A stretch of DNA of 64,000 nt from Clostridia bacterium (GCA_017442225.1 JAFSAR010000010.1:30306-94305); one strand, 5' to 3'; positions 4,720-63,868 are shown, counted from the first letter of the stretch. Made by a program: numbers and translations. The notes: generated by a model not told the origin, from the letters alone.

Positions 4720-4720
4720 A

Positions 4721-5690: not shown

Positions 5691-5698
5691 GTGATTTT

Positions 5699-11155: not shown

Positions 11156-11167
11156 GAGGTACGCTGA

Positions 11168-37112: not shown

Positions 37113-37251
37113 ATTGTAACTCCTCCTTTAAAATAGTATAATATATTTTAACAGTTTATCTGCAAAAATGCAACATTAAAGATTTCTTAATAATTTAAAG
37201 ACTTTTTTCTTAAAAAAATTATTGGTAAAATATGCTCGGAGGGTGAGGAAA

Positions 37252-37944
37252 ATGTATAATATTCTGGTTTGCGATGATGAAAGAGATATCGTTTCTGCTT
37301 TGAGGATATATTTGGAATCTGATGGTTATAAAGTATTTACGGCATCTAACGGCAAAGAGGCAATTGACATTGTAAACGGCAATGAAATTCATCTGATACT
37401 TATGGATATTATGATGCCTGTAATGGACGGTATAACCGCTATGGTAAAGTTGAGGGAAAGCAGTAACGTTCCCGTTATATTGCTTACCGCAAAGAGTGAG
37501 GATACCGACAAAATACTCGGTCTTAACGTTGGAGCAGATGATTATATAACAAAACCGTTTAATCCTGTTGAAATGCTTGCGCGCGTGCGTTCGCAGATAC
37601 GCCGTTATACCAAGCTTGGCGGCAGTATGGCACAGTCAGATGACGATATATTAACCGTAGGCGGCATATCGCTTAATGACGCGTCAAAGATTGTAACGGT
37701 TGACGGTGACGCCGTAAATCTGACGCCTACTGAATACGAGATACTTAAATTGCTTATGCAAAATAAGGGTAGGGTAATGTCGCAAAAAGAGATTTATGAA
37801 AGCGTGCGAAAAGAACTTGCTTTCGGCGCCGAAAATACCATAGCCGTACATATTCGTCATCTGCGTGAAAAGATAGAAATTAACCCGTCGGAGCCACGCT
37901 ACATTAAAGTTGTATGGGCACACGGATATAAATTTGAGGGATAA
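37252..37944 (+). CDS. OmpR-family response regulator
   Basis: Receiver domain (ILVCDDE..DLILMDIMMP..LTAK) and a winged-helix output (LTPTEYEILKLL). ATG at 37252 follows GGAGGGTGAGG. Confidence 0.92.
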   Translation: MYNILVCDDERDIVSALRIYLESDGYKVFTASNGKEAIDIVNGNEIHLILMDIMMPVMDGITAMVKLRESSNVPVILLTAKSEDTDKILGLNVGADDYITKPFNPVEMLARVRSQIRRYTKLGGSMAQSDDDILTVGGISLNDASKIVTVDGDAVNLTPTEYEILKLLMQNKGRVMSQKEIYESVRKELAFGAENTIAVHIRHLREKIEINPSEPRYIKVVWAHGYKFEG

Positions 37945-37948
37945 GTTT

Positions 37949-39892: not shown

Positions 39893-39904
39893 GGATATAA
39901 AACA

Positions 39905-40582
39905 ATGCAACAGTTTGAACTTTCCAATCTTGAAAAACTAATGCTAAAGCGTAAAATAATGCGCAAAAAAAGAATACGCGAAATGGTTATTATTTTAATT
40001 GTGGTTGTTCTCGCGCTATGCGGTGTGTTGGGATTTACGCTTTATAAAAACGGCGGTAAATTACCAGCAAAGCAGCTGAACGTAAAAACTTTGATAACAC
40101 CCGACTATGTTGACGAACAGCTTATAAACGTAGGATTTGCAAGAACAGGTGTCAAGCTTGTTGAAATTAATAATATCGTTATTCATTATGTCGGTAATCC
40201 CGATACCTCAGCGCAAAACAACCGCGATTATTTTAACAAGGCGGATACTACCGTGTGTTCGCATTTTGTGATCGGTCTTGACGGCGAGGTTATCCAGTGT
40301 ATACCTTTGGACGAAAAATCAAATGCCAGCAACAACCGCAATCTTGATACAATTTCAATTGAGGTGTGCCACCCCGACGAGAGCGGTAAATTTAATGACG
40401 CTACGTACAGTTCGCTCGTAAAGCTTACTGCGTGGCTGTGCGATAATTCGGGACTAAAAGCCAAAGATGTTATAAGACACTACGATATAACGGGCAAGGA
40501 ATGCCCAAAATATTTTGTGGATAACGAGTCCGAATGGAAAAACTTTTTAGAAGACGTAAAAGAAGAACTTAAAAATTATTAG
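39905..40582 (+). CDS. N-acetylmuramoyl-L-alanine amidase (Amidase_2/PGRP fold), membrane-anchored
   Basis: N-terminal TM helix. IVIHYVGNP, SHFVIGLDG, SIEVCH and RHYDITGKECP motifs. Confidence 0.85.
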   Translation: MQQFELSNLEKLMLKRKIMRKKRIREMVIILIVVVLALCGVLGFTLYKNGGKLPAKQLNVKTLITPDYVDEQLINVGFARTGVKLVEINNIVIHYVGNPDTSAQNNRDYFNKADTTVCSHFVIGLDGEVIQCIPLDEKSNASNNRNLDTISIEVCHPDESGKFNDATYSSLVKLTAWLCDNSGLKAKDVIRHYDITGKECPKYFVDNESEWKNFLEDVKEELKNY

Positions 40583-43897: not shown

Positions 43898-43926
43898 TTG
43901 CAATTTTGATTTTAAAGGTGTATAAT
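43898..43926 (+). promoter_or_regulatory. Candidate promoter of the glycan operon (TTGCAA-17-TATAAT)
   Basis: TTGCAA at 43898-43903 and TATAAT at 43921-43926, 47 nt upstream of the first gene. Confidence 0.45.
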
Positions 43927-43973: not shown

Positions 43974-44588
43974 ATGTATCGTAATTTTTTTAAAAGATTG
44001 ATTGATATTTTTCTTTCCTTATTGGTTTTAACGATTTTATCTCCAATTTTATTAGTAAGTGCGTTAGCAATTAAGGTTGATTCAAAAGGTCCCGTGATTT
44101 TTAAACAAAAGCGTTTGGGACTTGGTGGAAAAGAGTTTTACATATACAAATTCCGTTCAATGTGTGTTGGCGCTGAAAAGAGTGGAGTTTATTCCGATAA
44201 TAACGATAAGCGTGTTACAAGGGTTGGCAATATTTTGCGTAAAACCAGTATTGATGAATTACCACAAGCCATTAACATACTTAAAGGTGATATGAGCTTT
44301 GTTGGTCCTCGTCCACCACTTACATATCATCCGTGGCCTATTGATGAGTATACAGCTGAGCAGCGTAGAATGTTTAATGTTCGACCAGGTATTACAGGTT
44401 GGGCGCAAGTAAATGGTCGAAAGGCTGTTGAATGGAACAGACGTATTGAGCTTAATAATTGGTATGTTGACAATATTTCGTTTTTGTTAGATATAAAAAT
44501 TTGTTTTATGACAATTTTTAAGGTTTTTACTAACGCAGATAATGAAAATGTTGGTGAAACAGTTGTAAAAGAAACTGTTAATAAGTAG
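43974..44588 (+). CDS. Small monotopic phosphoglycosyl transferase (PglC/WbaP-C-terminal type initiating sugar transferase)
   Basis: 204 aa. KRLIDIFLSLL re-entrant helix, KFRSM, DELPQ and FVGPRP motifs. Confidence 0.9.
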   Translation: MYRNFFKRLIDIFLSLLVLTILSPILLVSALAIKVDSKGPVIFKQKRLGLGGKEFYIYKFRSMCVGAEKSGVYSDNNDKRVTRVGNILRKTSIDELPQAINILKGDMSFVGPRPPLTYHPWPIDEYTAEQRRMFNVRPGITGWAQVNGRKAVEWNRRIELNNWYVDNISFLLDIKICFMTIFKVFTNADNENVGETVVKETVNK

Positions 44589-45438: not shown

Positions 45439-46344
45439 ATGAATCTATTAGTCACAGGTGCGTATAATTGCACACAAGAACAACTTAATAGAATTACTGA
45501 AATCGGCAATAATATAGTTTTTCACAAAATGGAAAAAGATGACTTACCTTGTTCTTATGATTGGGTAGAGGGTGTCATTTGTAACGGTTTGTTCCTGCAT
45601 CATCCCATTGAAAAATTTACTAATTTGAGGTTTATACAACTTACGAGTGCTGGCTATGATCGAGTTGATATGAATTATGTAAACGAGCATGATATTCAAA
45701 TATTTAATGCACGTGGTGTTTATAGTATACCAATGGCAGAATTCGCGGTGTGCGGTGTGCTTGATCTTTATAAACAAAGCAGATTTTTTTACGATAATCA
45801 AAAGCAACATCGTTGGGACAAGCACCGTGGACTTTTTGAACTTTTTGGTAAAACAGTGTGTATTGTAGGCAGTGGAAATGTTGGTACTGAGTGCGCAAAA
45901 CGCTTTAAAGCATTTGATACAACAGTTTACGCAGTAGATATTTGTAAGCCGCAAAGCGAAATATACGATAAATATTTTTCGCTTGAAAAAATAACCGATG
46001 CAATAAGTCAATCTGATGTTATAGTTTTAACACTTCCGCTTACTGAACAAACAAAATATATGTTTGATAAAAAAATGTTTTTATATTTTAAGTCAAATGC
46101 AATTTTAGTAAATATTGCTCGTGGAGCAATTGTAAATCAAGATGATTTAATTAATGCTTTGAATAATAAGCAACTTTATGGCGCGGTTTTAGATGTTTTT
46201 GAAACCGAACCACTCCAAGCCGACAGTCCGCTTTGGGATATGCCAAATGTAATTATTACTCCACACAATAGTTTTGTTGGGGAGGGTAATATGCAAAGAT
46301 TAACAAATATAATTTTATATAATCTGGAGATGTATAACAGATGA
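45439..46344 (+). CDS. D-isomer-specific 2-hydroxyacid dehydrogenase, NAD-binding
   Basis: GSGNVGTECAKR Rossmann motif and catalytic R (NIARG), E (FETEP) and H (TPH). Confidence 0.88.
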   Translation: MNLLVTGAYNCTQEQLNRITEIGNNIVFHKMEKDDLPCSYDWVEGVICNGLFLHHPIEKFTNLRFIQLTSAGYDRVDMNYVNEHDIQIFNARGVYSIPMAEFAVCGVLDLYKQSRFFYDNQKQHRWDKHRGLFELFGKTVCIVGSGNVGTECAKRFKAFDTTVYAVDICKPQSEIYDKYFSLEKITDAISQSDVIVLTLPLTEQTKYMFDKKMFLYFKSNAILVNIARGAIVNQDDLINALNNKQLYGAVLDVFETEPLQADSPLWDMPNVIITPHNSFVGEGNMQRLTNIILYNLEMYNR

Positions 46345-47942
46345 GTTTACGAATGTTTAAAGATGAAATTAAGGCGACTCTTGATGTTTCACCTAAATAC
46401 CGCGATCTGCTTTTTAGAAGAGGATATATTTTTACCGATAAGCCTTTAGCGGATACGGCTAATTATCCGTTTTATGGATTGTGGAATCAAAAAAACATAG
46501 GCAGTTACTATTTGTATGTCCAGCAAAGTCAAACGGTTTGCAGTGCAACACAAAATGGTATTAGTGCTGTAATAATTGGACATGCATATAATCCGTTTGA
46601 TATGAAGTATGATGAAAATGAGATTTGTCTTGATTTAATTTCTGCATATTCTCAAAACATAGAAACATATTTTGATAAAGTTTCTGAACTTACTGGACTC
46701 CATATTATAATTTTAATTGATGGTCAAAATGTTATTGCTTGCCAAGACGCTTGCTCACTTACAGGTTGTTATTTTGGTAAAGTAAATGATACTATGTATA
46801 TTACCGAGCATCCGCAACTTGTAGCAGACATATGTGATCTTAAAATAAACAAAAAGGTTGAAAAACTTGTCCAATCAAAGTGTTACAATATTGGTAATAG
46901 AAATTTACCAGGCAATATAACACCATATGACGAATTAAAGCGTTTGGGTGCTAATACTTATTTGAATTATGATGGTAAGTTTGATATTAAACGTTTTTAT
47001 CCAACATTGCCACATCCGGAATTTGTTACAGAAGAAGAAAAAACTGAAAATATTAAAAAAATTGGCGACCTTATAAATCGAGGTATTGAGTGTTGCTCTA
47101 AAAAGTGGAACAGATGTACCATTTCTCTATCTGGTGGTACTGACAGCAAAACAACCCTTGCGTGCGCAAACGGTTTATATGATAAGTTTTCATATTTTAG
47201 TTTTCATTCTAAACCACAGGAGTTGGTTGATGCTAAAGGTGCGGCAAAAATTTGTGAAAATTTAGGTCTTGAACACACTCTTTATAATATTCCTCAAGAA
47301 AATAGTGAAATAAAAGATTTTGATTTTATAAAAAAGATATTACAACATAATACTAATTATTTTGTAAATCTTGCTGACAACGAAATAAGAAAATACATAT
47401 ATCTTAATCGCCTCGATGCTTATGATATTGAACTTAAATCTTGGGCGTCTGAAGTGGCACGAGTTTTCTTTGAAAGAAAATATAAAATCAAAATGCCAAA
47501 ACGGCTAAATGAAAGGCATTTAAGTATTTTTCAAACAAGGTTTTTTGGTCATCCGATTTTGCTTCGTTGGACTGATAAAGAATATTATAAGTTTTTACGT
47601 GAAATAGGTTTGGAAAAGCCTATACATAATTTTGAACATACAGATTTAATATATTGGGAAGTACGTATGGCTTCGTGGGGTGTATCTGTTGTTTCTTCAC
47701 AGCAACTATATCACCGAACAACCATGCCTATAAATAATCGTAAAATTTTAGAATTGTTTTTATCTTTCCCACATGAAGAAAGAAAGTCTGATTCAGTACA
47801 TAAACGAATTATGGAATATAAAAATAAGGCTATCGTTGAAGCTGATGTTGAAATTGCAAATTTATACTTTCATAGTTATCGAATATTAATGGAGAAAGCC
47901 TATTACTATTTAAGAACTTTATTTTATCATCCCAAAAAATAA
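46341..47942 (+). CDS. Divergent asparagine-synthetase-fold protein: PP-loop adenylating domain with an N-terminal domain lacking the Cys nucleophile
   Basis: PP-loop ISLSGGTDSK near residue 265. The N-terminal LTGLHIIILIDGQNVIACQDACSLTGCYF resembles the AsnB L.G.FAF.L.D....L.RD..G..PLY block. The protein starts MSLRMF with no Cys2. Confidence 0.55.
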   Translation: MSLRMFKDEIKATLDVSPKYRDLLFRRGYIFTDKPLADTANYPFYGLWNQKNIGSYYLYVQQSQTVCSATQNGISAVIIGHAYNPFDMKYDENEICLDLISAYSQNIETYFDKVSELTGLHIIILIDGQNVIACQDACSLTGCYFGKVNDTMYITEHPQLVADICDLKINKKVEKLVQSKCYNIGNRNLPGNITPYDELKRLGANTYLNYDGKFDIKRFYPTLPHPEFVTEEEKTENIKKIGDLINRGIECCSKKWNRCTISLSGGTDSKTTLACANGLYDKFSYFSFHSKPQELVDAKGAAKICENLGLEHTLYNIPQENSEIKDFDFIKKILQHNTNYFVNLADNEIRKYIYLNRLDAYDIELKSWASEVARVFFERKYKIKMPKRLNERHLSIFQTRFFGHPILLRWTDKEYYKFLREIGLEKPIHNFEHTDLIYWEVRMASWGVSVVSSQQLYHRTTMPINNRKILELFLSFPHEERKSDSVHKRIMEYKNKAIVEADVEIANLYFHSYRILMEKAYYYLRTLFYHPKK

Positions 47943-47959: not shown

Positions 47960-49066
47960 TTGAAATTCGTTTTAATTTCTCCCAAAAACCGAACTGTTTA
48001 TAATTTCCGTGGTGATCTTATAAAAGAGATTATTAGTAGAGGATATGAGGTAATTGTAACCGGTCCTGACAGTATTGATGTGGATAAAATAACTGCTTTG
48101 GGTGCAAGATTTGTTGAAATACCCATGAACAAAAATGGTACAAGTATTTTAGGAGACATCAAATATTGCAAAAATTTATATAAATTGTTTAAAAATGAAA
48201 AACCAGATATTACATTGGGCTATACCGTAAAACCTGTTGTGTATGGTGCAATTGCGGCAAAATTTGCAGGTGTAAAAAATATAAACAGTATGGTTACTGG
48301 TGGTGGTTATACCTTTACTGCCAAAACATTTAAGGCAAAGATTTTAGGCCTTATTGTTAGATGTTTATACAAAATTGGTTTTTCAAAAGCCAATAACGTA
48401 ATTTTTCAAAATTCAGATGATCTTAATGAGTTTTGCGACAGGAAGTTGGTTAAGCGCGACAAGTGCAATGTAGTAAATGGTTCGGGTGTTAATACTTCGC
48501 ACTTTTTACCGACTGATTATCCACAAACAACTACGTTTTTTATGCTTTCAAGATTGCTTAAAAGTAAGGGTGTTGTCGAGTATCTTGAAGCGGCAAAAAT
48601 TGTAAAAACAAGATATCCAGAAGTGCGCTTTTGTCTGCTTGGTAAATATGAAACAAATATGCAGGACGCTTTGTCAAAAGAATATGTTGAGACGTTTATT
48701 GCAGATGGTGTTATAGAACGATTCGAAGAAACAAACGATGTAAGGCCATATTATGCTGATTGTAGCGTGTATGTTTTGCCATCTTATCGAGAGGGTACAC
48801 CGCGCACGGTGCTTGAAGCAATGGCGATGGGCAGACCAATCATTACTACCGATACAAACGGCTGTAGAGATACTGTTATTGATGGAAAAAATGGTTTTTT
48901 AGTGACGATTGGTAATAGTAGTCAGCTTGCAGATGCAATGATTAAATTTGTTGAAAATGCTGAATTGATTAAAACAATGGGTGAAGAAAGTGTTATTTAC
49001 TGCCACCAGAAATTTAATGTTAATAAAGTTAATTGTGATATGATTAATATTTTGGGGGTGTCGTAA
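47960..49066 (+). CDS. Glycosyltransferase family 4 (GT-B)
   Basis: EGTPRTVLEAMAMGRPIITTD..G E(x7)E-type motif. TTG start with GAGGTG RBS. Confidence 0.85.
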   Translation: MKFVLISPKNRTVYNFRGDLIKEIISRGYEVIVTGPDSIDVDKITALGARFVEIPMNKNGTSILGDIKYCKNLYKLFKNEKPDITLGYTVKPVVYGAIAAKFAGVKNINSMVTGGGYTFTAKTFKAKILGLIVRCLYKIGFSKANNVIFQNSDDLNEFCDRKLVKRDKCNVVNGSGVNTSHFLPTDYPQTTTFFMLSRLLKSKGVVEYLEAAKIVKTRYPEVRFCLLGKYETNMQDALSKEYVETFIADGVIERFEETNDVRPYYADCSVYVLPSYREGTPRTVLEAMAMGRPIITTDTNGCRDTVIDGKNGFLVTIGNSSQLADAMIKFVENAELIKTMGEESVIYCHQKFNVNKVNCDMINILGVS

Positions 49067-50165: not shown

Positions 50166-51485
50166 ATGTCACTTTATGAGAAAATTGTTAATGGGGAAGA
50201 AAAAATTTCGCTTGTAGGTCTTGGTTACGTTGGTATGCCTATAGCCGTATCTTTTGCAAAAAAGGTTAAGGTTGTCGGCTTTGACCTTAACGCCAAAAAG
50301 ATTGAGCTTTACAAGTCGGGCATTGACCCTACAAACGAAGTAGGCGATGAAGTTATTAAAAACACTACCGTTGAGTTTACTGCTGATGAATCAAAGCTTC
50401 GTGAAGCAAAATTCCATATTGTTGCTGTACCTACCCCTGTAAATGACGACCATACGCCCGATTTAACACCTGTTGAGGGCGCTTCAACAATAGTTGGTCG
50501 CAACATTACCAAAGGCTCAATTGTAGTTTATGAGTCTACTGTTTACCCCGGTGTTACCGAGGATATTTGTATTCCGATTTTGGAACGCGAATCGGGTCTT
50601 AAATGCGGTGTGGACTTTAAGGTTGGTTATAGCCCTGAGCGTATTAACCCGGGCGACAAGGTTCACCGCCTTGAAACAATTGTTAAAATTGTAAGCGGTA
50701 TGGACGAAGAATCACTCGAGGAAATTGCTAACGTTTACGAGCTTGTTGTTGAGGCAGGCGTTCATCGCGCCGAAAGCATCAAGGTTGCTGAGGCTGCAAA
50801 GGTAATCGAAAATAGCCAACGTGATATTAACATTGCCTTTATGAACGAGCTTTCTATTATCTTTAATAAAATGGGTATTGATACACAGTCGGTACTTAAG
50901 GCTGCAGGCACAAAATGGAATTTCTTAAAGTTTTATCCGGGTCTTGTTGGCGGTCACTGTATAGGTGTTGACCCATATTACCTTACATACAAGGCAGAAC
51001 AGCTTGGTTATCACAGCCAAATTATTCTCTCAGGTCGTCGTATAAATGATGATATGGGCAAGTACGTTGCTGAAAGTGTTGTTAAAAATCTTATAAAAGC
51101 TGATTTGCCAATTAAGAATGCAAAGGTTGCGATTTTGGGCTTTACTTTCAAAGAAAATTGCCCCGATACCCGCAACACAAAGATTATTGATATTTATAAC
51201 GAGCTTAAAGAGTATGGTATAACTGCAACTGTTGCTGACCCCGCGGCAGATGCCGATGAAGCCGAGCACCTTTACGGTATGAAATTTGTAGATATTTCTA
51301 CCATTAAAGATTGTGATGTGGTTATACTTGCCGTTGCTCATGAACAGTTTAAGTCGCTTACACAAGCTGATTTTGACAAAATGTTCAAATCAGTTGAGAA
51401 TAACAAAAAGGTTCTTGCAGACATTAAAGGTTTGCTTAACCGTAAAGAATATGAAACTGCTGGCTATAATTATTGGAGATTATAA
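50166..51485 (+). CDS. UDP-N-acetylhexosamine 6-dehydrogenase (TviB/WbpO-like nucleotide sugar dehydrogenase)
   Basis: Collinear with my recollection of Salmonella TviB: GLGYVGMP, VPTPV..PDLTP, VVYESTVYPG, GYSPERINPGDK, ESIKVAEAAKVIEN.QRD and GLVGGHCIGVDPYYL. Confidence 0.88.
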   Translation: MSLYEKIVNGEEKISLVGLGYVGMPIAVSFAKKVKVVGFDLNAKKIELYKSGIDPTNEVGDEVIKNTTVEFTADESKLREAKFHIVAVPTPVNDDHTPDLTPVEGASTIVGRNITKGSIVVYESTVYPGVTEDICIPILERESGLKCGVDFKVGYSPERINPGDKVHRLETIVKIVSGMDEESLEEIANVYELVVEAGVHRAESIKVAEAAKVIENSQRDINIAFMNELSIIFNKMGIDTQSVLKAAGTKWNFLKFYPGLVGGHCIGVDPYYLTYKAEQLGYHSQIILSGRRINDDMGKYVAESVVKNLIKADLPIKNAKVAILGFTFKENCPDTRNTKIIDIYNELKEYGITATVADPAADADEAEHLYGMKFVDISTIKDCDVVILAVAHEQFKSLTQADFDKMFKSVENNKKVLADIKGLLNRKEYETAGYNYWRL

Positions 51486-51502: not shown

Positions 51503-53029
51503 ATGTCAAAGAGTAGAAATTTATTAAAATCAATAACACATTCACTTGGGAATGGTGCATACAAGAAAAAATTAAGAAAAAAACCAGAACTGTTCTTTAC
51601 GTTAAGACAGATTTGTGAGAATGTCGGCTTAAATTTAGAAAATCTTGATGATGTTGTTAGAATAAATTTGGACAAAACAGTTTCATATGTATGTCGTTAT
51701 GGTGACCGCTTTACAAAAGATTGTATTTGTGTTCAATTATATGATGATAGCGATAACATAATGAAAAAAGCTATAAGTGAAGGCGCCCTGGTTTGTGTGA
51801 CCGACCACAAAATAGAGGGCTTGCCATGTATAATTGTTGATAATCCATATGCCACTTATGCTGATATGTGTAGTATTATACGCGATACAGCACAGATAAA
51901 ATCAACTGTTATTGTTGGAAGTATCGGTAAAACAACAACAAAAAAAATGGTTGCATCGGTTTATAAACAAGCATTTAACACCCATTGTGATTCTGGAAAT
52001 GATAACATACTTGACAGTATAGGATCTATTTGTCAGCATATTCCTGCAAAATCAGAACAATTAGTTGCTGAGATTAGTGAGGATACGCCTGGACTTATTG
52101 AACAAATGTCAAAAATCGTTAAACCAGAAATTGCTATTATAACGACTATTGATAAATCTCATATTGAATTTTACGGAAGTGAAGAAAACATTTTTAATGA
52201 ATTTCGTTCTGTAACAAAACATATGCGCGAAGATGGTATATGCATTATGAGTATGGATGAAGAAAATGCTAGGAGCCTTATAGAAAATAGAAAGGTTGTA
52301 TTCGTTTCTGTTAATGACGAAAATGCTGATTTTTTTGCTGCTAATATTAATGTTGATACCGAAGGATTAAATTTTGATATTATTGAAAAGGCAACTCAAA
52401 AAACATATGCTATTAAGCTTTATAATTCTTATGCAATACATAATGTTACAGCGGCATTAATAGCTTTTGCAGCCGGTGTTGTAAATGGTATTGACTATAA
52501 TAAAATCGTTAACGGTCTTGCATCTTACAGAGCTACCGGAATTCGCCAAAATATATATAATGCTGGTAGTAAAATCGTTTACGCTGATTGTTATAATGCA
52601 GTAGCAAAGTCGGTTCGTTCTGCAGTAAATGCAGCATGTGATATTCCTATTAAAGGTAAAAGGATAGCAGTTTTAGGCGATATTGCCGAAGCAGGAGATT
52701 ATACAGAATCAACGCATATGGAAATAGCAGAAATTGTTAATAATTCTGATTTTGATATTCTATTAACCTTTGGTGAAGAGTTAAAAAAGGCTATTTCAAA
52801 TACCACGATGAGAAACGATCTCACCATTATGATGTTTGAAACACAAAAAGATATGAATAAAGCATTAAAAAAGATGTTAAAAAAAGGCGATCTTGTTTTG
52901 TTTAAAGCAAGTCACAGGGCAAATCTTGAAGCTTCTATTGCAAGTGTATTTACGCTTTCATATTTATATCAATCAATAAAATATTATACTCCGCGAATTT
53001 TATGGCATTTTAAAGTTATATTAAATTAA
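51503..53029 (+). CDS. Mur ligase family protein, MurF-like (divergent N-terminal domain)
   Basis: P-loop VGSIGKTTTKKM, AEISEDTPGLIEQMSKIVKPEIAIITTIDKSHIEFYGS (MurF GEI..L..PD..VITNI..AHLE.FGS block), DCYNA, VLGDIAEAGDY...H and the C-terminal GDLVLFKASHR. The MurF N-terminal DSR and DGH motifs are not recognisable. Confidence 0.75.
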   Translation: MSKSRNLLKSITHSLGNGAYKKKLRKKPELFFTLRQICENVGLNLENLDDVVRINLDKTVSYVCRYGDRFTKDCICVQLYDDSDNIMKKAISEGALVCVTDHKIEGLPCIIVDNPYATYADMCSIIRDTAQIKSTVIVGSIGKTTTKKMVASVYKQAFNTHCDSGNDNILDSIGSICQHIPAKSEQLVAEISEDTPGLIEQMSKIVKPEIAIITTIDKSHIEFYGSEENIFNEFRSVTKHMREDGICIMSMDEENARSLIENRKVVFVSVNDENADFFAANINVDTEGLNFDIIEKATQKTYAIKLYNSYAIHNVTAALIAFAAGVVNGIDYNKIVNGLASYRATGIRQNIYNAGSKIVYADCYNAVAKSVRSAVNAACDIPIKGKRIAVLGDIAEAGDYTESTHMEIAEIVNNSDFDILLTFGEELKKAISNTTMRNDLTIMMFETQKDMNKALKKMLKKGDLVLFKASHRANLEASIASVFTLSYLYQSIKYYTPRILWHFKVILN

Positions 53030-53043: not shown

Positions 53044-54018
53044 ATGGGTTATAAACATCTAAAGTTTCCTGAAAATACTTTGTTTTTGGTAACAGGTGCT
53101 GCCGGTTTTATTGGTAGCAACCTATGCGAAGCAATACTTGATTTAGGTTATAAGGTTCGTGCCTTAGATGACTTTTCAACAGGTAAGCAAGCAAATGTCG
53201 ATTTGTTTCTTGATAATCCAAACTATGAGTTTATCAAAGGTGATATCAAAGATTTAGATACTTGTATGAAAGCATGCGAAGATGTAGATTTTGTGCTTAA
53301 TCAAGCAGCTTGGGGCAGTGTACCTCGTAGCCTTGAAATGCCTATTTTCTACTGTCGCAACAATATTGAAGGCACCCTTAATATGTTAGAGGCTGCTCGT
53401 CAATGTGGTGTTAAAAAGTTTGTTTATGCTTCAAGTTCTTCCGTTTATGGTGATGAGCCTAATCTTCCTAAAACCGAGGGAAGAGAGGGTAACCTTTTGT
53501 CACCATATGCTCTTACAAAACGCTGTGATGAAGAGTGGGCAAAGCTTTATACAATGCATTATGGACTTGATACCTACGGTATGCGTTATTTTAACGTGTT
53601 TGGTCGTCGTCAGGATCCTGATGGTGCATACGCGGCTGTTATTCCTAAATTCTTAAAGATGCTACTTCACGGCGAAAAACCAACTATAAATGGTGATGGC
53701 AAACAAAGTCGTGACTTTACATACATTGATAACGTTATCGAGGCTAACTTAAAAGCTTGTCTTGCGCCACACGAGGCGGCAGGCGAGGCATATAACATAG
53801 CCTATGGTGGTCGTGAGTATCTTATTGATATTTACTACGGTCTTACCAAGGCTTTGGGTGTTGATATCGAGCCAAACTTTGGCCCTGATCGTAAGGGTGA
53901 TATTAAACACTCTAACGCAGACATTAGCAAAGCAAAACGTCTCCTCGGCTACGACCCTGATTACAGCTTTACTGACGGTATAAAACTTGCTATAGAGTGG
54001 TATAAGGAGAACTTATAA
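53044..54018 (+). CDS. UDP-N-acetylhexosamine(uronic acid) 4-epimerase (TviC/WbpP-like SDR)
   Basis: VTGAAGFIGSN, AAWGSVPRS, SSSSVYGD, SPYALTK, RYFNVFGRRQDP.GAYAAVIP and GDGKQSRDF are collinear with TviC/WbpP as I recall them. Confidence 0.88.
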   Translation: MGYKHLKFPENTLFLVTGAAGFIGSNLCEAILDLGYKVRALDDFSTGKQANVDLFLDNPNYEFIKGDIKDLDTCMKACEDVDFVLNQAAWGSVPRSLEMPIFYCRNNIEGTLNMLEAARQCGVKKFVYASSSSVYGDEPNLPKTEGREGNLLSPYALTKRCDEEWAKLYTMHYGLDTYGMRYFNVFGRRQDPDGAYAAVIPKFLKMLLHGEKPTINGDGKQSRDFTYIDNVIEANLKACLAPHEAAGEAYNIAYGGREYLIDIYYGLTKALGVDIEPNFGPDRKGDIKHSNADISKAKRLLGYDPDYSFTDGIKLAIEWYKENL

Positions 54019-55840: not shown

Positions 55841-56662
55841 ATGGATATGATGAAACAAGGACATATTTCAGTCATTATGGCAACCTATAATTGTGCCGAT
55901 ACTTTACGTCAAAGTGTTGATTCGGTTTTGGCACAAACGTACACGGATTATAAATTTATAATTTGTGATGATTGCTCTACTGATGATACATACTCAATAT
56001 TAAAACAGTATGAGGCTGATTATCCCGATAAGTTTTTGATAATTAAAAATGAAAAAAATTCAAAGTTGCCATTTTCGCTTAATCATTGCTTAAAATATGC
56101 TGATGGTGAATATTGTGCGCGTATGGACGGTGACGATTATATCGCGCCTGACCGTTTTGAAAAGCAGGTAGAGTTTTTAAAAAATAATCCCGACATACAG
56201 CTTGTTGGTTGTGCGTTGCAGACATTTGATGACAAAAAGGGTATGGGTAGGATAATATATTGTCGTGAATACCCCGAAAAACTCCATCTTTTAGATGCTC
56301 CTTGTTTTCCGCATGCAGCAATTATGACCTATACAAGTGTGTATAATGCTCTTGGCGGATACACTGTATCGAAGCGAACTGTGCGTTCACAGGATTATGA
56401 TCTTTGGTTTAGGTTTTTTGCCAAAGGCTTTAAAGGTGCAAATTTGCAAGAACCTCTTTACTTTATGCGTGAAGATGAATTTTCCTTCCTTAGAAGGAAA
56501 CCTCGACTCTACTTATGGCTTATGGTAACTAAATGGAAAGGTTATCGTTTGCTAAAATTTCCGCTTAAATATTATTGGCACATTTTATTACCGCTTGTTG
56601 CTCTTTTTAGAAATGAAACAAGAAAACTGAAGGCAAAAACGTCTCTAAAAAGTAAAAAATAA
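55841..56662 (+). CDS. Glycosyltransferase family 2
   Basis: ISVIMATYNCADTLRQSVDSVLAQTY..FIICDDCSTDDT and DGDD (DxD). The start could be the ATG at 55847 or 55850. Confidence 0.88.
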   Translation: MDMMKQGHISVIMATYNCADTLRQSVDSVLAQTYTDYKFIICDDCSTDDTYSILKQYEADYPDKFLIIKNEKNSKLPFSLNHCLKYADGEYCARMDGDDYIAPDRFEKQVEFLKNNPDIQLVGCALQTFDDKKGMGRIIYCREYPEKLHLLDAPCFPHAAIMTYTSVYNALGGYTVSKRTVRSQDYDLWFRFFAKGFKGANLQEPLYFMREDEFSFLRRKPRLYLWLMVTKWKGYRLLKFPLKYYWHILLPLVALFRNETRKLKAKTSLKSKK

Positions 56663-56691: not shown

Positions 56692-57783
56692 ATGATTTCT
56701 TATATTATTGTTTTTTTTATTGTTGGTGTGTTTGCCTGGCTTGCAGAAAAAAGTCACAAAGAAGTTACCGATCTTACAGGCGATGTTCTACATAAAAAAA
56801 CAACAAGTACAATTATATTTTTAATTATTGCCGGCGGACTGCTTACTGCTATGGCAGGTCTGCGTTATCACGTTGGTACAGACTATAAAAACTATATTTA
56901 TTTATATGAAACTTTTTATTCAAAACAAAGTTTAAAAGAGCTTTTGGTTATTGATAATGAACCAATGTTACCGATTATTGGCCATTTTTCACATAAGTTT
57001 TTTGATTCATATTATGCTATGTTCTTTTTTGCTTCCGTCATCTCGGTCGGTATAGTTATTTATAGCACTTACACAGAAACTACAGATTTTCTTTATACAA
57101 CAATGCTTTACATTTTTGCCGGCGGTTTTGTTGGTTCGTTCAATGGCATTAGGCAATTTATGGCGGTTGCAATTGTGTTTTTAGGTAGGCGTTTTATTGT
57201 AGAACGTAAGTTTTGGAAATATCTTTTGGTTTGCTTTATTGCTTTTTTGGCGCATAAATCTGCACTGTTTTGTATTTTGTTCTATTTTGTTTATACTAAA
57301 AAATTCTCTACAAAGCGACTCTTAATAATACTTATAATTACAATATTCTTCTCTATTAATTATGAAACTATATTTGATTTTATTGGATGGATGAATGATG
57401 CTGAATTTGTTGCAGATGCATACGCATCAACAAGTGTTAATGTGTTCAGAACATTAGTTGGTTGTTGTCCTGCTATAATGGGTCTTTATTTTGCATATAA
57501 CAAAAAGGATTTAGATGACCAACAAGTATTTTATATTTATATATTAGTTATTAATGCTGCAACGCGTATAGTAACATCTGATAGTGCATATCTCGCACGT
57601 CTTGCGTGTTATCCTACGGTTTTTGTACCGCTGGGTCTTGGCTATCTAACTGACCTTTGCAGTCAAAAGTATTATAAGGTATTTAGAGCGGGAATTTTGA
57701 TTTTGTATATGGCTTTTTGGTTATATGAAGTATTAAATACAAAAACATTACGCGAATTTGAATGGATTTTTGGAAATATGTAA
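56692..57783 (+). CDS. EpsG-family membrane protein (Wzy-like polymerase candidate)
   Basis: About 10 TM helices and the GLRYHVGTDYKNY motif typical of the EpsG family. Confidence 0.75.
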   Translation: MISYIIVFFIVGVFAWLAEKSHKEVTDLTGDVLHKKTTSTIIFLIIAGGLLTAMAGLRYHVGTDYKNYIYLYETFYSKQSLKELLVIDNEPMLPIIGHFSHKFFDSYYAMFFFASVISVGIVIYSTYTETTDFLYTTMLYIFAGGFVGSFNGIRQFMAVAIVFLGRRFIVERKFWKYLLVCFIAFLAHKSALFCILFYFVYTKKFSTKRLLIILIITIFFSINYETIFDFIGWMNDAEFVADAYASTSVNVFRTLVGCCPAIMGLYFAYNKKDLDDQQVFYIYILVINAATRIVTSDSAYLARLACYPTVFVPLGLGYLTDLCSQKYYKVFRAGILILYMAFWLYEVLNTKTLREFEWIFGNM

Positions 57784-57806
57784 TTTGTATTTGGGGTGAA
57801 ATGATT

Positions 57807-58733
57807 ATGAATAATTTAAAAATTTTGGTTGTTATGGGTGGTACCTCTTCAGAACGCGAAGTTTCACTTCGTAGCGGACAAGCGGTATATGATGCACTAG
57901 TGCGAGTAGGCTATAATGTTGAAAAATTTATTCTTAATGAAAATAATGTTTGTGGAATCATAGATATTAAGCCTGATTTATGCGTATTAGCATTGCATGG
58001 TAAGGGCGGTGAAGATGGTACGATTCAGGGTATGCTTGAGCTCGCCGGTATTAAATACACAGGTTCTGGAATAGCAAGTAGCGCTAATTGTATGAATAAA
58101 ATTCTTACTAAAAAATTATTGCAAATTAATGGAATACCTACACCACAATACGCTGTTATTAATAAAGGTGAAAATGTTATTGACTTTGTTGATTATATAC
58201 TTACAAAATTTGATTTTCCCCTTGTGGTTAAAGCACCGTGTCAAGGCTCTAGTGTAGGTGTTGAAATAGCTCACAATAAAGAACTACTTATAAAATCAAT
58301 TGAAAATAACATTGATTATGATGGTGAAATTCTTATAGAAGAGTTTATAAATGGTACTGAACTTACTGTTCCTGTTATGCGTGAAAATAACAATGTTATT
58401 TCGCTACCAATAGTTGAAATTGTTTCTGAAAATTCTTTTTATGATTTCGAATCAAAATATACAACCGGAATGAGTCGTCACATCATACCGGCAAGAATTT
58501 CTAATGATGCAAGTGATAAAATAAATAAATATGCTATAGATGCATATAAAGCCTTATCTTGCAAGGGTGTTGCACGTATTGATTTTTTTATTGACAAAGA
58601 CGATAATCCTTATGTAATAGAAATTAATACTCTTCCAGGAATGACAGCAACAAGCCTTGTTCCAGATTCGGCAAAAGCAGCCGGAATATCTTTTGATGAA
58701 CTTGTTAATATGATCGTTATGCAAGCATTATAG
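57807..58733 (+). CDS. ddl: D-alanine--D-alanine ligase (DdlB-type ATP-grasp)
   Basis: KILVVMGGTSSEREVSLRSG, LHGKGGEDGTIQG, the FYDFESKYT omega-loop region with Tyr retained and EINTLPGMT. ATG at 57807 preferred. Confidence 0.9.
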   Translation: MNNLKILVVMGGTSSEREVSLRSGQAVYDALVRVGYNVEKFILNENNVCGIIDIKPDLCVLALHGKGGEDGTIQGMLELAGIKYTGSGIASSANCMNKILTKKLLQINGIPTPQYAVINKGENVIDFVDYILTKFDFPLVVKAPCQGSSVGVEIAHNKELLIKSIENNIDYDGEILIEEFINGTELTVPVMRENNNVISLPIVEIVSENSFYDFESKYTTGMSRHIIPARISNDASDKINKYAIDAYKALSCKGVARIDFFIDKDDNPYVIEINTLPGMTATSLVPDSAKAAGISFDELVNMIVMQAL

Positions 58734-58764: not shown

Positions 58765-59715
58765 ATGAGTATAAAAAATTTTTTACGAAATGTATTATAT
58801 AAAAATGGTATTGGTAAATCAATATGGTATACTTTGCATACAATTAATATTAATGTTCTTCGCGTGTTACCGAATGAAACTTATTTTAAACGTGCTTACA
58901 AAAAAACGCATGGCGTAGATCCTAATTTTAAAGATCCACAAACATTTGACGAAAAGCAATTGTGGCTTAAGATGAACTATCGCAACCCGCTTTGTACAAA
59001 ATGCTCAGATAAATATCTTGTCAGAGAATACATAAAAGAGTGCGGATTAGAGCATATTCTTAATCCAATATACGGTGTGTATGATTCTGTAGATGACATA
59101 AAGTGGGAAGAACTTCCAGATAGATTTTATATTAAAGCAAATCATATGAGTGCTTGTAACGTGCGTTGTAATAATCTTGCAACATTTGAAAAAAAAACGG
59201 CTGTAAAAAAACTTGCTCGTGGTATGAAGCATGATTACTCACTTGACTCAAGAGAATGGAATTATCACGATATCGACCGTAAAATTATTGCAGAAGCAAT
59301 AATTGAAAATCAGGATGGATCTGGACTTATAGATTATCGATTTTTGTGTAGTTATGGAAATTGCGACTATCTGTTTGTTGACATTGATACTGCTGATGAA
59401 AACGGAACCCACAGAACGGATGCAAGAAGAAACGTTTACGATAAAGATTTTAATTTGATGGATGTTAAGGTTTCTAGACCTAATTTTGAACCGTCTTTTA
59501 TTTCAAAACCTAGTAACTTTGATGAAATGCTTAAATATGCTCAAATTTTAAGTAAGCCATTTCCATTTTGCAGAGTTGATTTTTATAATGTCGATGGCAA
59601 AATCATTTTTGGTGAAATAACATTTTTCCATGCAGGCGGACTCAGTAAGGTAACGCCAAAAGAATGGGAAATTAAACTTGGCGATATCATTAATCTTAAA
59701 GAGCTTTTAAAATAA
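58765..59715 (+). CDS. TupA-like ATP-grasp fold amidoligase family protein
   Basis: About 316 aa. DPQTFDEKQLWLKM, DKYLVREYI, FYIKANHMS, DYRF and CRVDFY..DGKIIFGEITF match the TupA-like ATP-grasp family layout as I remember it. Confidence 0.7.
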   Translation: MSIKNFLRNVLYKNGIGKSIWYTLHTININVLRVLPNETYFKRAYKKTHGVDPNFKDPQTFDEKQLWLKMNYRNPLCTKCSDKYLVREYIKECGLEHILNPIYGVYDSVDDIKWEELPDRFYIKANHMSACNVRCNNLATFEKKTAVKKLARGMKHDYSLDSREWNYHDIDRKIIAEAIIENQDGSGLIDYRFLCSYGNCDYLFVDIDTADENGTHRTDARRNVYDKDFNLMDVKVSRPNFEPSFISKPSNFDEMLKYAQILSKPFPFCRVDFYNVDGKIIFGEITFFHAGGLSKVTPKEWEIKLGDIINLKELLK

Positions 59716-60854: not shown

Positions 60855-61721
60855 ATGCGACTTGGGCAAATAGTTTGGCAACTTGCTATTAGAAAGTTGC
60901 CTCAAGGCGCCATTTTGACAGATAAAAAGACACCATTTATAGCAGTACCAAATCCAATTGGAATGTGGGCTGCAGATCCATTTATTTTAGAAAAAGATAA
61001 TAAGGTCTATATTTTTGCTGAGTTGTTTTCTTTGTCACAATGGCGCGGAAAGTTAGGCTATTGTGTTTATGAAAACAATAAATTCTCAAAATGGAATATA
61101 ATTTTTGATGATGAACACCACTATTCGTATCCTAATGTGTTCGAAAAAAACGGTGAAATTTTTATGATGCCCGAAACAGGTTCTATAAACGAGATTGCTA
61201 TTTACAAAGCCGTTGATTTTCCGTCAAAATGGGAAAAACAGTCAGTGATTTTAAGCGGTGAAAAAATGGTTGATTCAGTTTTTATATCTGATGATACTAT
61301 TTTAAGTTATAAAATGTTTGGCAATTTTAAAAATCATCTTGTTTTACTTAAAAAAGAAAATAATGATTGGTATCAGGTTGCAAACATTGTTGATAGTCAG
61401 GAGATTAAGCGTCCGGCAGGTAAGATTTTTTCATGCGGAGCAGGCTTTGTCAGACCTGCGCAAGATGGTCGTAGTTTATATGGCGGAGCAATTAAGTTTT
61501 TTGATTGCGGTGACATAGCAAATGATATTAATAGCGAAAAAGAAATTCTTGATTTGCAACCTTGTGAAATTGTTGTTAAAAATTTAAATAAAGAATTTGT
61601 TGGTACACATACATACAATTCCATTTCTAACTTTGAAATTGTTGATGTCCAATATTACAAGTTTTCGTTTATTGGCTTGTTCAAAAGAATTTTTATAAAA
61701 TTATCAAAACGCAGGAGATAA
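60855..61721 (+). CDS. Hypothetical protein, possibly a beta-propeller (GH43/GINT1 N-terminal-like) fold
   Basis: WAADPFIL..K.YIFAE and YPNVFEKNGEIFMMPE resemble glycoside hydrolase-like propeller blades. The assignment is weak. Confidence 0.4.
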   Translation: MRLGQIVWQLAIRKLPQGAILTDKKTPFIAVPNPIGMWAADPFILEKDNKVYIFAELFSLSQWRGKLGYCVYENNKFSKWNIIFDDEHHYSYPNVFEKNGEIFMMPETGSINEIAIYKAVDFPSKWEKQSVILSGEKMVDSVFISDDTILSYKMFGNFKNHLVLLKKENNDWYQVANIVDSQEIKRPAGKIFSCGAGFVRPAQDGRSLYGGAIKFFDCGDIANDINSEKEILDLQPCEIVVKNLNKEFVGTHTYNSISNFEIVDVQYYKFSFIGLFKRIFIKLSKRRR

Positions 61722-62851: not shown

Positions 62852-63868
62852 ATGAATGCACCCTTGGTATCGATAATAATACCGATGTATAACTCACAAG
62901 ATAAAATTAATAAATGTATTAATAGTGTTGTTAAACAAACGTATAAAAAAATAGAAATATTATTGGTTAATGATGGTTCGACCGATAATTCTTTATCAAT
63001 ATGCAATGATATTGCGAAAGCTGATAATCGTATAAAAATTATTGATATTGAAAATCAAGGCGTAAGTGTTGCAAGAAACATAGGAATTCAACAGGCCAAA
63101 GGTGACTATATAATGTTTGTTGACAGCGATGATTATGTTGAAAATACTATTGTCGAAAAGCTGTTAAATAATTTAATTGAAAATGATGCTGATATCAGTC
63201 AATGTGGTTGCAATGTTGCAAATAATAACGGTAAAATTTTAAAAACTTATAATGTTCCTTATTATAATATATTAAATAGGGAAGAAATAATTAAAAAAAT
63301 AGTACTACCATTATTTGGGAAAATTAAGGTTGATTCTGTCGCTATACAAGGCTTTTGTGTCTGTAAATTATTTAAAAAAGATATAATCAATAATATTAGA
63401 TTTAATGTTGAGCAAAGAATATATCAAGATCGTTGCTTTAATATTGATGCATATTTAAATGCACAAAAAACAAGCTTTATTGACGAGCAGTTGTATTATT
63501 ATGTTGTAAATTCCACATCATCTACTCAACGTAAACGTGACGATATTTGGAAACAGTGTACAATTTTGATTGATGCCTTAAACAGTAGAATCGGCTTGCT
63601 TTCAGGTGATTTTAACAGTGAGTTAAAATCACGTATTCATAAAACTGCTTCCACAAGGTTAGTATATGTTACAAGGCATATTTTTAAATATCAATCGGAA
63701 AAAGGCATATTAAATGCGGTTCGGTTTGTTAAACAAATGCGACAAAATTTCATGTTCGATAAAGGAGTATTAAATCCTGATTTGGGATTTGTTTTTAGTG
63801 TATTATCAAAATTATTACATTATAGGCTTTATTTTTTAGCTGTTTTAGTTTCAAAAATTGCAGGTTGA
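62852..63868 (+). CDS. Glycosyltransferase family 2
   Basis: VSIIIPMYNSQDKINKCINSVVKQTY..ILLVNDGSTDNS and DSDD. Confidence 0.88.
   Translation: MNAPLVSIIIPMYNSQDKINKCINSVVKQTYKKIEILLVNDGSTDNSLSICNDIAKADNRIKIIDIENQGVSVARNIGIQQAKGDYIMFVDSDDYVENTIVEKLLNNLIENDADISQCGCNVANNNGKILKTYNVPYYNILNREEIIKKIVLPLFGKIKVDSVAIQGFCVCKLFKKDIINNIRFNVEQRIYQDRCFNIDAYLNAQKTSFIDEQLYYYVVNSTSSTQRKRDDIWKQCTILIDALNSRIGLLSGDFNSELKSRIHKTASTRLVYVTRHIFKYQSEKGILNAVRFVKQMRQNFMFDKGVLNPDLGFVFSVLSKLLHYRLYFLAVLVSKIAG

Follow-up and report, generated by a model that had tools for sequence, protein, structure and literature searches.

A MurF-derived ligase family of Clostridia glycan loci that may attach D-Ala-D-Ala to a polysaccharide precursor

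MurC and Mpl are Mur ligases that activate a sugar-borne carboxylate, the lactyl carboxylate of N-acetylmuramic acid linked to uridine diphosphate (UDP), abbreviated UDP-MurNAc. The pseudomurein ligases pMurC, pMurD and pMurE of methanogens are Mur homologs as well, and there the peptide ends on the carboxylate of N-acetyltalosaminuronic acid. Here we describe a MurF-like ligase gene at positions 51503-53029 (+) of a 64,000-nucleotide (nt) stretch from a Clostridia bacterium (GCA_017442225.1 JAFSAR010000010.1:30306-94305), the whole of which we call the window. On balance, we favor the explanation that the gene product is an accessory MurF-derived ligase, which would add the D-alanyl-D-alanine (D-Ala-D-Ala) made by the D-Ala-D-Ala ligase Ddl to a carboxylate on an N-acetylhexosamine (HexNAc)-uronic-acid precursor, for a Wzy-type heteropolysaccharide and not for peptidoglycan.

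Canonical MurF resembles this protein and its family in having three domains with a MurF-type domain 1, in being the best sequence and fold match, in the motifs of the C-terminal domain and in the link to Ddl; the family and a set of relatives fused to leucine-rich repeats (LRRs) form the sister group of canonical MurF. The differences are an identity of about 34% to the dcw-located MurF of Oscillospiraceae, scores below the curated cut-off, changed DSR and DGH motifs, the loss of the carbamoylated lysine, extra terminal helices, and a position that is never next to murE or mraY and always in a glycan locus. MurC and Mpl likewise lack the carbamoylated lysine and carry a second glutamate three residues after the Mg-binding one (E-A-D-E-[SY]-D, compared with E-x-[SD]-E in the family), whereas their domain 1 is Rossmann-type, the family's is not, and the family's C-terminal domain is MurF-like. 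Mpl also shows that a Mur ligase can transfer a peptide, already assembled, to a carboxylate carried by a sugar (PMC3060825).

Other described systems share single elements with the locus. In Actinoplanes teichomyceticus, murF2 encodes a second, specialized MurF beside a Ddl-family ligase and a 2-hydroxyacid dehydrogenase (PMC4790382); that cassette, which VanX and VanRS accompany, serves to alter the peptidoglycan precursor, whereas the window combines a D-Ala-D-Ala-type Ddl with a glycosyltransferase operon. The TupA-like enzyme Cj1438C of the Campylobacter jejuni capsule carries out ATP-dependent amidation of the C6 carboxylate of glucuronic acid (GlcA) (PMC11800379). A TupA-like gene is present in the window operon and in most family loci with sufficient flanking sequence, but Cj1438C has an ATP-grasp fold rather than that of a Mur ligase, and it adds ethanolamine phosphate and serinol phosphate, not peptides. 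By analogy, the nearest known chemistry to the proposed reaction would be that of the pseudomurein ligases, which differ in being archaeal, in making an all-L peptide without D-Ala-D-Ala, and in the score of about 43 bits that the window protein reaches against the pMurE and pMurD1 models. MurT/GatD, CapB/PgsB and cyanophycin synthetase (CphA) are precedents for the reuse of Mur-ligase domains on other amide bonds, although none of them is the family's closest relative. The initial annotation of the window had taken the proposed route to be undescribed, and our literature searches agreed with it, returning no paper on such an enzyme and no description of the family or of a Mur ligase in a polysaccharide pathway. 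We regard the family as a new Mur-ligase subfamily in a new pathway context.

Domains and catalytic residues of the MurF-like protein

The open reading frame (ORF) opens at the first ATG past an in-frame stop, with an AGAGGA ribosome-binding site 7-8 nt 5′ of it, and encodes 508 amino acids (aa). The gene and the parts of its product are listed below; conservation from end to end was judged from an alignment of 25 family sequences.

51503..53029, +: MurF-like Mur ligase coding sequence, 508 aa plus stop; matched by Pfam, TIGR01143, the AlphaFold2 model and Protein Data Bank (PDB) folds
51503..51667, +: N-terminal extension, residues 1-55; kept in the 25-member alignment, gapped in canonical MurF
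51668..51886, +: domain 1, MurF-type with altered motifs, residues 56-128; phmmer alignment from residue 57 and consensus comparison
51887..52537, +: central ATPase domain, residues 129-345; P-loop G139-SIGKTTTK, E190, H220, H313-N314
52538..52948, +: C-terminal domain, residues 346-482; D362-C-Y-N-A, L391-G-D-I-A-E-A-G, H405, F467-K-A-S-H
52949..53026, +: C-terminal aromatic/basic helix, residues 483-508; family-specific, absent from canonical MurF

Both the central and the C-terminal domain score above the Pfam gathering thresholds for the Mur ligase superfamily (Mur_ligase_M, residues 138-321, 102.8 bits, cut-off 24; Mur_ligase_C, residues 356-470, 48.5 bits, cut-off 28.4), and Pfam gives no domain match in residues 1-137. 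Among NCBIfam models murF (TIGR01143) matches best; it scores 225.5 bits, short of its cut-off of 288.6, and its alignment begins only at residue 86. Scores for other Mur-type models are lower, namely 95.4 for murC TIGR01082 (cut-off 335.1), 42.2 for mpl (cut-off 388.7), 43.4 bits for pMurE (cut-off 600), 43.3 bits for pMurD1 (cut-off 610) and 29 bits for cyanophycin synthetase; MurT and CapB are not among the matches. With phmmer, Escherichia coli MurF (1gg4) aligns to residues 57-432 of the query (E 1.5e-33).

AlphaFold2, run on the family alignment, returned a confident model (predicted local distance difference test (pLDDT) 90.6; predicted template modeling score (pTM) 0.88). In Foldseek the ten top PDB matches are all MurF structures, followed by MurE and MurC, with target-normalized TM-scores of 0.80 for E. 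coli 1gg4 and 0.79 for 4cvk, the Pseudomonas aeruginosa MurF with UDP-MurNAc-tripeptide. The predicted fold superposes on MurF across all three domains, and domain 1 is considered homologous to MurF domain 1 because the phmmer alignment starts at residue 57 and the fold matches. The gene thus encodes a three-domain Mur ligase whose nearest relatives by sequence and predicted fold are MurF, and the product is complete and probably active.

The sequence blocks on which the initial annotation had based its assignment (GSIGKTTTK, PEIAIITTIDKSHIEFYGS, DCYNA, VLGDIAEAGDY and GDLVLFKASHR) all occur in the translation of 51503-53029, and the DSR and DGH strings that it reported missing are indeed both absent. 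It had also called the N-terminal domain non-canonical. This is borne out for the motifs, which are altered, and for the added extension, but not for the fold, which aligns and superposes with MurF domain 1.

To place these changes, motifs were compared between 85 non-redundant family members and 31 non-redundant canonical MurFs from murE-murF-mraY loci. Domain 1 of MurF holds the uridine-ribose pocket (PMC11569785). In the MurF-like protein the canonical DSR column reads Y66-G67-D68, with an invariant R69 one position later, and the DGH column reads D82-S-D84 (D82-x-D84 in the family), where D82 is the sole kept residue. The catalytic set is better preserved: G139/K143/T144, E190, H220, H313/N314, R348 and D362/Y364/N365 are invariant in the 25 family members and are also conserved in canonical MurF, except H313/N314, which are not flagged there. 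Family and canonical MurF thus have in common the P-loop, E190, H220, R348, D362-x-Y-N, LGDxxExG...H405 and FK[AG]S[RH]. Within the C-terminal domain, G392, E396, G398, H405, K468 and S470 are conserved in the family and in MurF and absent from MurC and MurE in the same alignment, and the MurC 'QPH' segment is missing from the family. The canonical 'NA[NS]P' that follows DxYN is changed to 'NAVAK'.

The carbamoylated lysine is essential in MurD, MurE and MurF, and MurC and Mpl compensate for its absence with a glutamate (PMC3060825). This lysine, part of the canonical 'AK.E' and conserved in at least 90% of canonical sequences, is gone from the family; the residue here is F234, in a column that varies among members. 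Two glutamates are invariant across the family, E193 (within E190-x-S-E193-D, here E190-I-S-E193-D) and E233. The family hidden Markov model (HMM) segment 'qEvSEDt' aligns in register with 'AEADESD' of MurC, and the MAFFT columns agree. As read from these alignments, the family appears to join a MurF scaffold and C-terminal domain to the MurC/Mpl solution for the second metal site.

Both ends of the protein carry helices outside the MurF core. A long basic helix spans residues 2-26, with a net charge of +8 over residues 1-30, and helices 2-26 and 34-41 are modeled at pLDDT 93-97. The C-terminal helix has the consensus ..Y...yy.P.i.W[RH].KVI.N; residues 484-507 have a pLDDT of about 90, seven aromatic residues and a net charge of +3. 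No transmembrane segment was found in the terminal helices, and their hydrophobic moments of 0.43 and 0.37, compared with a body mean of 0.26 (sd 0.13), indicate unremarkable amphipathicity. The high confidence of these helices in the model suggests that they pack on the protein; they could mediate membrane or partner binding.

Distribution, phylogeny and genomic context of the family

A search of 5.8 billion proteins yielded more than 120 family clusters (90% identity). With few exceptions their members measure about 505-530 aa, share 41-99% identity and align over their full length. The few named clusters are Clostridia metagenome-assembled genomes (MAGs), annotated at source as MurF or hypothetical, and the family apparently comes mostly from ruminant-gut Clostridia. 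A GTDB scan with one genome per species placed about 7 family members among the best 80 loci listed; the carriers are MAGs assigned to Clostridia, Bacillota and Acutalibacteraceae that come from the guts of goats and other ruminants, and no genome appears twice among the matches listed. When 1.84 billion representatives were scanned with the HMM, about 40 clusters (50% identity) scored above about 330 bits, and the majority of these have the length typical of the family. At lower scores come numerous MurF-like proteins that are longer and multidomain, and then canonical MurFs at about 275 bits and less.

Eight other family members score 209-254 bits on TIGR01143, so that nine of nine lie below the 288.6-bit cut-off, compared with 347.5 bits for a dcw-located Oscillospiraceae MurF that is about 34% identical to the MurF-like protein. 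In a neighbor-joining tree (49 sequences, 459 columns, identity distances, 100 bootstraps), the family is monophyletic in 100/100 replicates with tandem copies and distant metagenomic members included. Canonical MurFs from several phyla, among them Oscillospiraceae and other Clostridia, are monophyletic in 99/100, and the family falls outside this clade. It groups instead with Mur-ligase/LRR fusion proteins (92/100), and the family, these fusions and canonical MurF together split from MurE and MurC (99/100). The family's identity and its separation from canonical MurF are clear from these sequence comparisons. They support the view, put forward in the initial annotation, that the gene is a diverged MurF paralog and not a standard murF: it scores below the HMM cut-off, has neither DSR and DGH nor the carbamoylated lysine, and lies outside both the dcw context and the canonical clade.

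The sister clade consists of MurF-like ligases fused to BspA-type LRRs, 660-1212 aa in length, and the representative search returned many more multidomain MurF-like proteins of 600-2200 aa. Fusions are encoded in L024 at 9725-11710 (Lentihominibacter hominis NSJ-24; loci are designated by L numbers throughout), L117 at 9839-11962 and 3065-6700, L041 at 4412-6502 and 9731-11734, L126 at 329-2437 and L026 at 154-3558, and also in L116, L122 and L124. Ddl lies within about 3 kb of LRR-fused ligases and adjoins them in several cases (seen in L024, L117, L122 and L124). One LRR-fused ligase also has a PGA_cap/CapA domain.

For the genomic context, 41 family loci were collected and their ORFs labeled by phmmer against the window proteins. 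Ten of them are well flanked, with at least 6 kb on both sides, and these were compared with 35 canonical murF loci. In every contig long enough to judge, the family member sits in a Wzy-type glycan locus. The tie to polysaccharide loci and Ddl, which the initial annotation had read from the window, recurs across the family. All ten well-flanked loci contain a priming transferase (0/35 canonical) and a glycosyltransferase of family 4 (GT4; 1/35 canonical), and Ddl is found in 7/10 (6/35 canonical). An AsnB-like PP-loop protein and a TupA-like ATP-grasp protein each occur in 7/10, compared with 0/35 canonical loci for either. Conversely, MraY is present in 0/10 family and 32/35 canonical loci, and MurE in 1/10 (in truth a MurD) and 32/35; the dcw arrangement murE-murF-mraY was not found for the family. 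An HpcH/HpaI-like protein is encoded in 5/10 well-flanked family loci and a D-2-hydroxyacid dehydrogenase in 7/10.

Gene order is also partly conserved. The PP-loop gene often adjoins the ligase, and Ddl does so directly 7 times in the 41 loci. TupA joins them in an unbroken row of three in L010 and L091, with the order TupA-Ddl-ligase, and in L015, with the order ligase-Ddl-TupA. A block of TviB, PP-loop protein, ligase and TviC recurs in L005, L008, L011 and L015. Alanine racemase forms a cassette with Ddl and the ligase in L091, L093 and L106. The catalytic residues of a D-Ala-D-Ala ligase, Tyr216 among them, are intact in all Ddls encoded in these loci. Five loci (L096, L098, L106, L112 and L113) hold tandem family copies, which in L112 and L113 come from different old sub-clades. 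Next to the ligase in L112 is a lysine 2,3-aminomutase (AblA equivalog, 596 bits against a cut-off of 525), and close homologs of it stand beside the ligase in L110 and L114. The genomic associations are those of a MurF-derived family dedicated to glycan loci in which further amide ligases and a D-Ala-D-Ala supply are also encoded.

Several cassettes carry further genes. In L112 (1663-9981) the order is PP-loop protein, lysine 2,3-aminomutase, two MurF-like ligases, a 425-aa protein, Ddl and glycosyltransferases, which suggests a stem peptide containing beta-lysine. L106 (22-10689) begins with an L-amino-acid-ligase-type ATP-grasp protein, a 608-aa protein with a weak B12-binding match, two MurF-like ligases and Ddl, and continues with a 406-aa protein, alanine racemase and an octopine-dehydrogenase-like protein. 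A recurrent protein of about 400 aa (L106, 7010-8230) adjoins a MurF-like gene in six loci, the others being L016, L091, L096, L108 and L111; it has no Pfam, NCBIfam or PDB sequence match and no homolog in the window. In L013, from an Acutalibacteraceae MAG, a bona fide MurD (350 bits, cut-off 212) is encoded on the minus strand at 217-1617; some 5 kb separate it from the glycan locus, and it has no murF or mraY beside it. The organism therefore has at least one dedicated Mur-pathway ligase.

The operon surrounding the gene

In the window, at least 18 same-strand genes with short gaps run from 43974 to the window end. The MurF-like gene starts 17 nt after a TviB-like gene and ends 14 nt before a TviC-like gene. 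The neighbors named in the initial annotation are all in place: UDP-HexNAc uronic acid enzymes, which are TviB-like and TviC-like, glycosyltransferases and, 4.7 kb downstream, Ddl. The operon looks like one transcription unit because the genes share one strand, the gaps are short and the best promoter-like site on the + strand (43898-43926) is upstream of the first gene. Apart from this site, the promoter and terminator scan is at the level of shuffled sequence, with no enrichment of terminator-like sites. The operon may continue beyond the end of the window. Besides the MurF-like gene, its members are:

43974..44588, +: priming polyprenyl-phosphate sugar-phosphate transferase (Bac_transf), first gene; EPS_sugtrans 279 bits
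44591..45427, +: distant HpcH/HpaI (pyruvate-aldolase-like) protein; resembles pyruvate aldolases weakly
45439..46344, +: D-2-hydroxyacid dehydrogenase family protein; NCBIfam 198 bits, weak resemblance to generic dehydrogenases
46341..47942, +: AsnB-like PP-loop (SGGTDS) protein, 533 aa; Pfam Asn_synthase at residues 257-321 only
47960..49066, +: GT4 glycosyltransferase, conserved core module; orthologs at 474-592 bits in L005, L008, L011, L013 and L015
49068..50144, +: Acyl_transf_3 O-acyltransferase
50166..51485, +: TviB-like UDP-N-acetylglucosamine (UDP-GlcNAc) 6-dehydrogenase; TviB 485 bits (equivalog cut-off 592)
53044..54018, +: TviC-like 4-epimerase of UDP-N-acetylglucosaminuronic acid (UDP-GlcNAcA); TviC 302 bits (cut-off 760), Pfam Epimerase 207 bits
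54018..55838, +: AsnB-type glutamine amidotransferase; TIGR01536 290 bits (cut-off 267), GATase_7 plus Asn_synthase
55841-56662, +: glycosyltransferase of family 2 (GT2), EpsE-like
56692-57783, +: EpsG-family Wzy-type polymerase
57762..58733, +: D-Ala-D-Ala ligase (Ddl); PRK01372 359.9 bits (cut-off 243), below every Van-type cut-off
58765..59715, +: TupA-like ATP-grasp amide ligase; Pfam ATPgrasp_TupA 148.9 bits
59730-60839, +: GT4
60855-61721, +: GINT1_N-domain protein; 85 bits
61725-62810, +: GT4
62852-63868, +: GT2

The TviB-like protein scores 388 bits on the NDP-sugar dehydrogenase subfamily model, above its cut-off of 189.8, and it would make the uronic-acid carboxylate. The AsnB-type amidotransferase probably turns a uronic acid into a uronamide. 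Its ORF begins MSGICGF, which puts the nucleophile cysteine at position 5 instead of the expected position 2, and the true start codon may therefore lie later or be non-canonical. The AsnB-like PP-loop protein is without an N-terminal glutaminase cysteine. Compared with the window AsnB by hhalign, it gives a weak alignment (probability 59.7%, E 8.8e-5, residues 99-279 against 87-263) that covers the end of the glutaminase domain and the PP-loop. It recurs as a partner of the MurF-like ligase and is a candidate for an amide ligase that works by adenylation. Neither this 533-aa protein nor the TupA-like protein has a sequence relative in the PDB.

The window Ddl keeps E15, S150, K215-Y216, R255, D257, E270, N272 and S281, numbered on what we take to be the E. 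coli DdlB sequence, in which the landmark residues checked out. The first 22 nt of its gene (57762-57783) are also the last of the EpsG gene, which suggests translational coupling within the glycan operon. The 64-kb window holds no other Mur ligase, Ddl or alanine racemase. We considered and rejected a VanH identity for the dehydrogenase, which scores 104.5 bits on vanH_gen against a cut-off of 540. A VanH/VanA pair was rejected as well, since all locus Ddls keep Tyr216 and the DdlB catalytic set and the Van models score far below their cut-offs.

The GINT1_N domain is named after the eukaryotic glucosamine inositolphosphorylceramide transferase and is found here in a bacterial polysaccharide operon; the protein (60855-61721) has no NCBIfam match. 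Upstream of the operon, 36129-40582 holds the gene of a tyrosine recombinase on the minus strand, a two-gene set for an OmpR-type response regulator and its histidine kinase, and an Amidase_2 gene for an N-acetylmuramoyl-L-alanine amidase. These upstream neighbors are not conserved in related loci, some of which have other recombinases at their flanks (L005, L006). Otherwise the window looks like ordinary chromosome of a spore-forming Firmicute, with 37.7% G+C and genes for trigger factor, ClpX, threonine synthase, a diaminopimelate-decarboxylase-like enzyme, PEP carboxykinase and SpoIVA.

Proposed reaction, alternatives and significance

If the enzyme is an accessory ligase that transfers D-Ala-D-Ala to a uronic-acid precursor, ATP would bind at the P-loop, and the Mg2+ site would be formed by E190, H220 and the MurC/Mpl-type second glutamate E193 in place of the carbamoylated lysine. 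The acceptor carboxylate would be phosphorylated to an acyl phosphate, and the amino group of D-Ala-D-Ala, supplied by the downstream Ddl, would attack it to form the amide. The acceptor would most likely be a carboxylate on the HexNAc-uronic acid provided by the flanking TviB-like and TviC-like enzymes. One candidate is the C6 carboxylate of UDP-GlcNAcA or its galacto epimer (UDP-GalNAcA); another is the carboxylate of an amino acid that the PP-loop protein or the TupA-type ligase had joined to C6 beforehand through an amide. Once it bears the peptide, the sugar would enter a repeat unit on undecaprenyl phosphate, which the EpsG-type polymerase would polymerize. Given the homology to Mur ligases, this mechanism appears the most economical. 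Support for D-Ala-D-Ala as the donor is moderate, because of the linkage to Ddl and alanine racemase and the kept MurF-type C-terminal domain. For the identity of acceptor and carrier it is weak: a HexNAc-uronic acid is suggested by position only, as the gene sits between the UDP-GlcNAcA- and UDP-GalNAcA-making enzymes, and the glutamate-type metal site shared with MurC and Mpl is a weak argument by analogy. The initial annotation had gone as far as a peptide-bearing sugar nucleotide. The Ddl tie and the kept C-terminal motifs favor the peptide; the C6 carboxylate is a candidate acceptor and a nucleotide sugar a candidate substrate.

A number of observations weigh against this explanation. Sequence does not fix the acceptor, and domain-1 motifs differ in more distant subfamilies. 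The operon encodes three other amide-forming enzymes (AsnB-type, PP-loop and TupA-type), which makes the division of labor ambiguous; what the ligase extends may therefore be an amino acid put in place by one of them. Three of the ten well-flanked loci are without Ddl within 10 kb. Loci with tandem copies have one Ddl, and both copies carry the MurF-type C-terminal motifs, so these motifs are not strictly diagnostic of D-Ala-D-Ala. No TviB or TviC is found within 10 kb in L006, L010 and L091, and the making of a HexNAc-uronic acid in cis is therefore not universal. No second Ddl occurs in the 64 kb, and the one present could serve as the housekeeping ddl of the genome. As for the substrate, the basic terminal helices could point to a membrane-bound one rather than a nucleotide sugar.

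This last point leads to an alternative that we take seriously while leaning against it, in which the chemistry is the same and the substrate is an undecaprenyl-diphosphate-linked repeat unit or the growing glycan at the inner membrane face. MurT/GatD acts on lipid II, and soluble MurF has no counterpart of the basic and aromatic helices conserved at the two ends of the family proteins. The characterized TupA-type relative works on GlcA within a glycan (PMC11800379), and L006, L010 and L091 are without nucleotide-sugar dehydrogenase and epimerase genes. Set against a lipid-linked substrate are the retention of a MurF-type domain 1 with D82 and a nearby invariant arginine, the interleaving of the gene with those for nucleotide-sugar enzymes, and terminal helices that are confident in the model and unremarkable in amphipathicity. 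Another departure concerns the nucleophile, which could be a single amino acid or some other amine in the same pathway, with the Ddl product used elsewhere or in peptidoglycan. This is plausible but unlikely. Tandem copies share one Ddl and lysine 2,3-aminomutase is a neighbor in L110, L112 and L114, and some members therefore probably add another amino acid, for example beta-lysine; the well-flanked loci without Ddl and the change of 'NA[NS]P' to 'NAVAK' fit as well. It sits poorly with the subfamily of the window protein, which repeatedly adjoins Ddl (L010, L014, L015, L017, L091 and L092), with the kept MurF-specific C-domain insertions and with the cassettes of alanine racemase, Ddl and ligase.

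The remaining explanations give up the accessory ligase or its defined dipeptide. It is very improbable that the gene is the organism's only, housekeeping MurF, fast-evolving and by chance in a polysaccharide operon with the housekeeping ddl. The closest characterized relative is MurF, public annotations say MurF, the 64-kb window has no second Mur ligase, and ddl-murF linkage is common in Firmicutes. Against a housekeeping role, the protein lacks the carbamoylated lysine reported essential in MurD, MurE and MurF (PMC3060825), all nine members tested score below the curated cut-off, and the family lies outside the MurF clade that holds Oscillospiraceae, other Clostridia and distant phyla. The family also appears sparse, with the roughly seven members among the best 80 GTDB loci listed, and it occupies variable glycan loci, some recombinase-flanked and some with tandem copies. 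A polymerizing ligase like CapB/PgsB or cyanophycin synthetase, making an oligo- or poly-amino-acid chain on the glycan and so a teichuronopeptide-like polymer, strikes us as highly improbable. Mur-ligase relatives can polymerize amino acids, the TupA family is named after teichuronopeptide synthesis, and in L010 and L117 relatives occur together with PGA_cap (CapA), as a gene or as a domain. The architecture and best matches are nevertheless those of MurF and not of CapB or CphA, with 29 bits on the cyanophycin synthetase model, and the association with Ddl and alanine racemase points to a defined dipeptide donor. Barely credible, finally, is a glycopeptide-resistance-like cassette of VanH-like, Ddl-like and MurF2 proteins making an altered precursor such as D-Ala-D-Lac. 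The operon does have a 2-hydroxyacid dehydrogenase gene, which in L008 and L011 is directly followed by Ddl, an OmpR-type regulator and kinase pair lies 4 kb upstream, and murF2 is next to vanHAX in A. teichomyceticus (PMC4790382). However, the gene tables of the window locus and of L005-L010 contain no VanX-like gene, the two-component pair is not conserved in related loci, and a resistance cassette leaves the constant embedding among glycosyltransferases unexplained.

D-Ala-D-Ala transfer to a glycan precursor, the explanation we favor, would have consequences beyond annotation. D-Ala-D-Ala is the handle by which penicillin-binding proteins (PBPs) take their substrate and the target of glycopeptide antibiotics, and to our knowledge it has been described only on peptidoglycan precursors. 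A bolder proposal, which we hold to be doubtful, is that the loci build a second, non-murein glycan with stem peptides on hexosaminuronic acid that end in D-Ala-D-Ala, in some loci include a diamino acid such as beta-lysine, and could be cross-linked by PBPs. If so, PP-loop ligase, ATP-grasp ligases, one or two MurF-like ligases, Ddl and alanine racemase would make up a parallel 'mini Mur pathway'. PBPs could cross-link the stem-peptide glycan to itself or to peptidoglycan by transpeptidation, and spore-forming Clostridia of the gut would then have a capsule, or an auxiliary layer of the wall, that is cross-linked through peptides.

Should the favored explanation hold, with D-Ala-D-Ala or related amino acids as the unit added, genes now called murF would be recognized as systematically mis-annotated, and a Mur ligase that combines a MurF scaffold with the second metal site of MurC and Mpl would bear on how acceptor specificities evolved in these enzymes. 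The product would be a polysaccharide with peptidoglycan-like peptide stubs, a decoration for which we found no description in the literature. Such polymers would have a route to covalent anchoring or cross-linking via transpeptidases and might present decoy sites for vancomycin-type antibiotics. Polysaccharides that bear peptides would thereby form a class of their own, new for Clostridia of gut and rumen.

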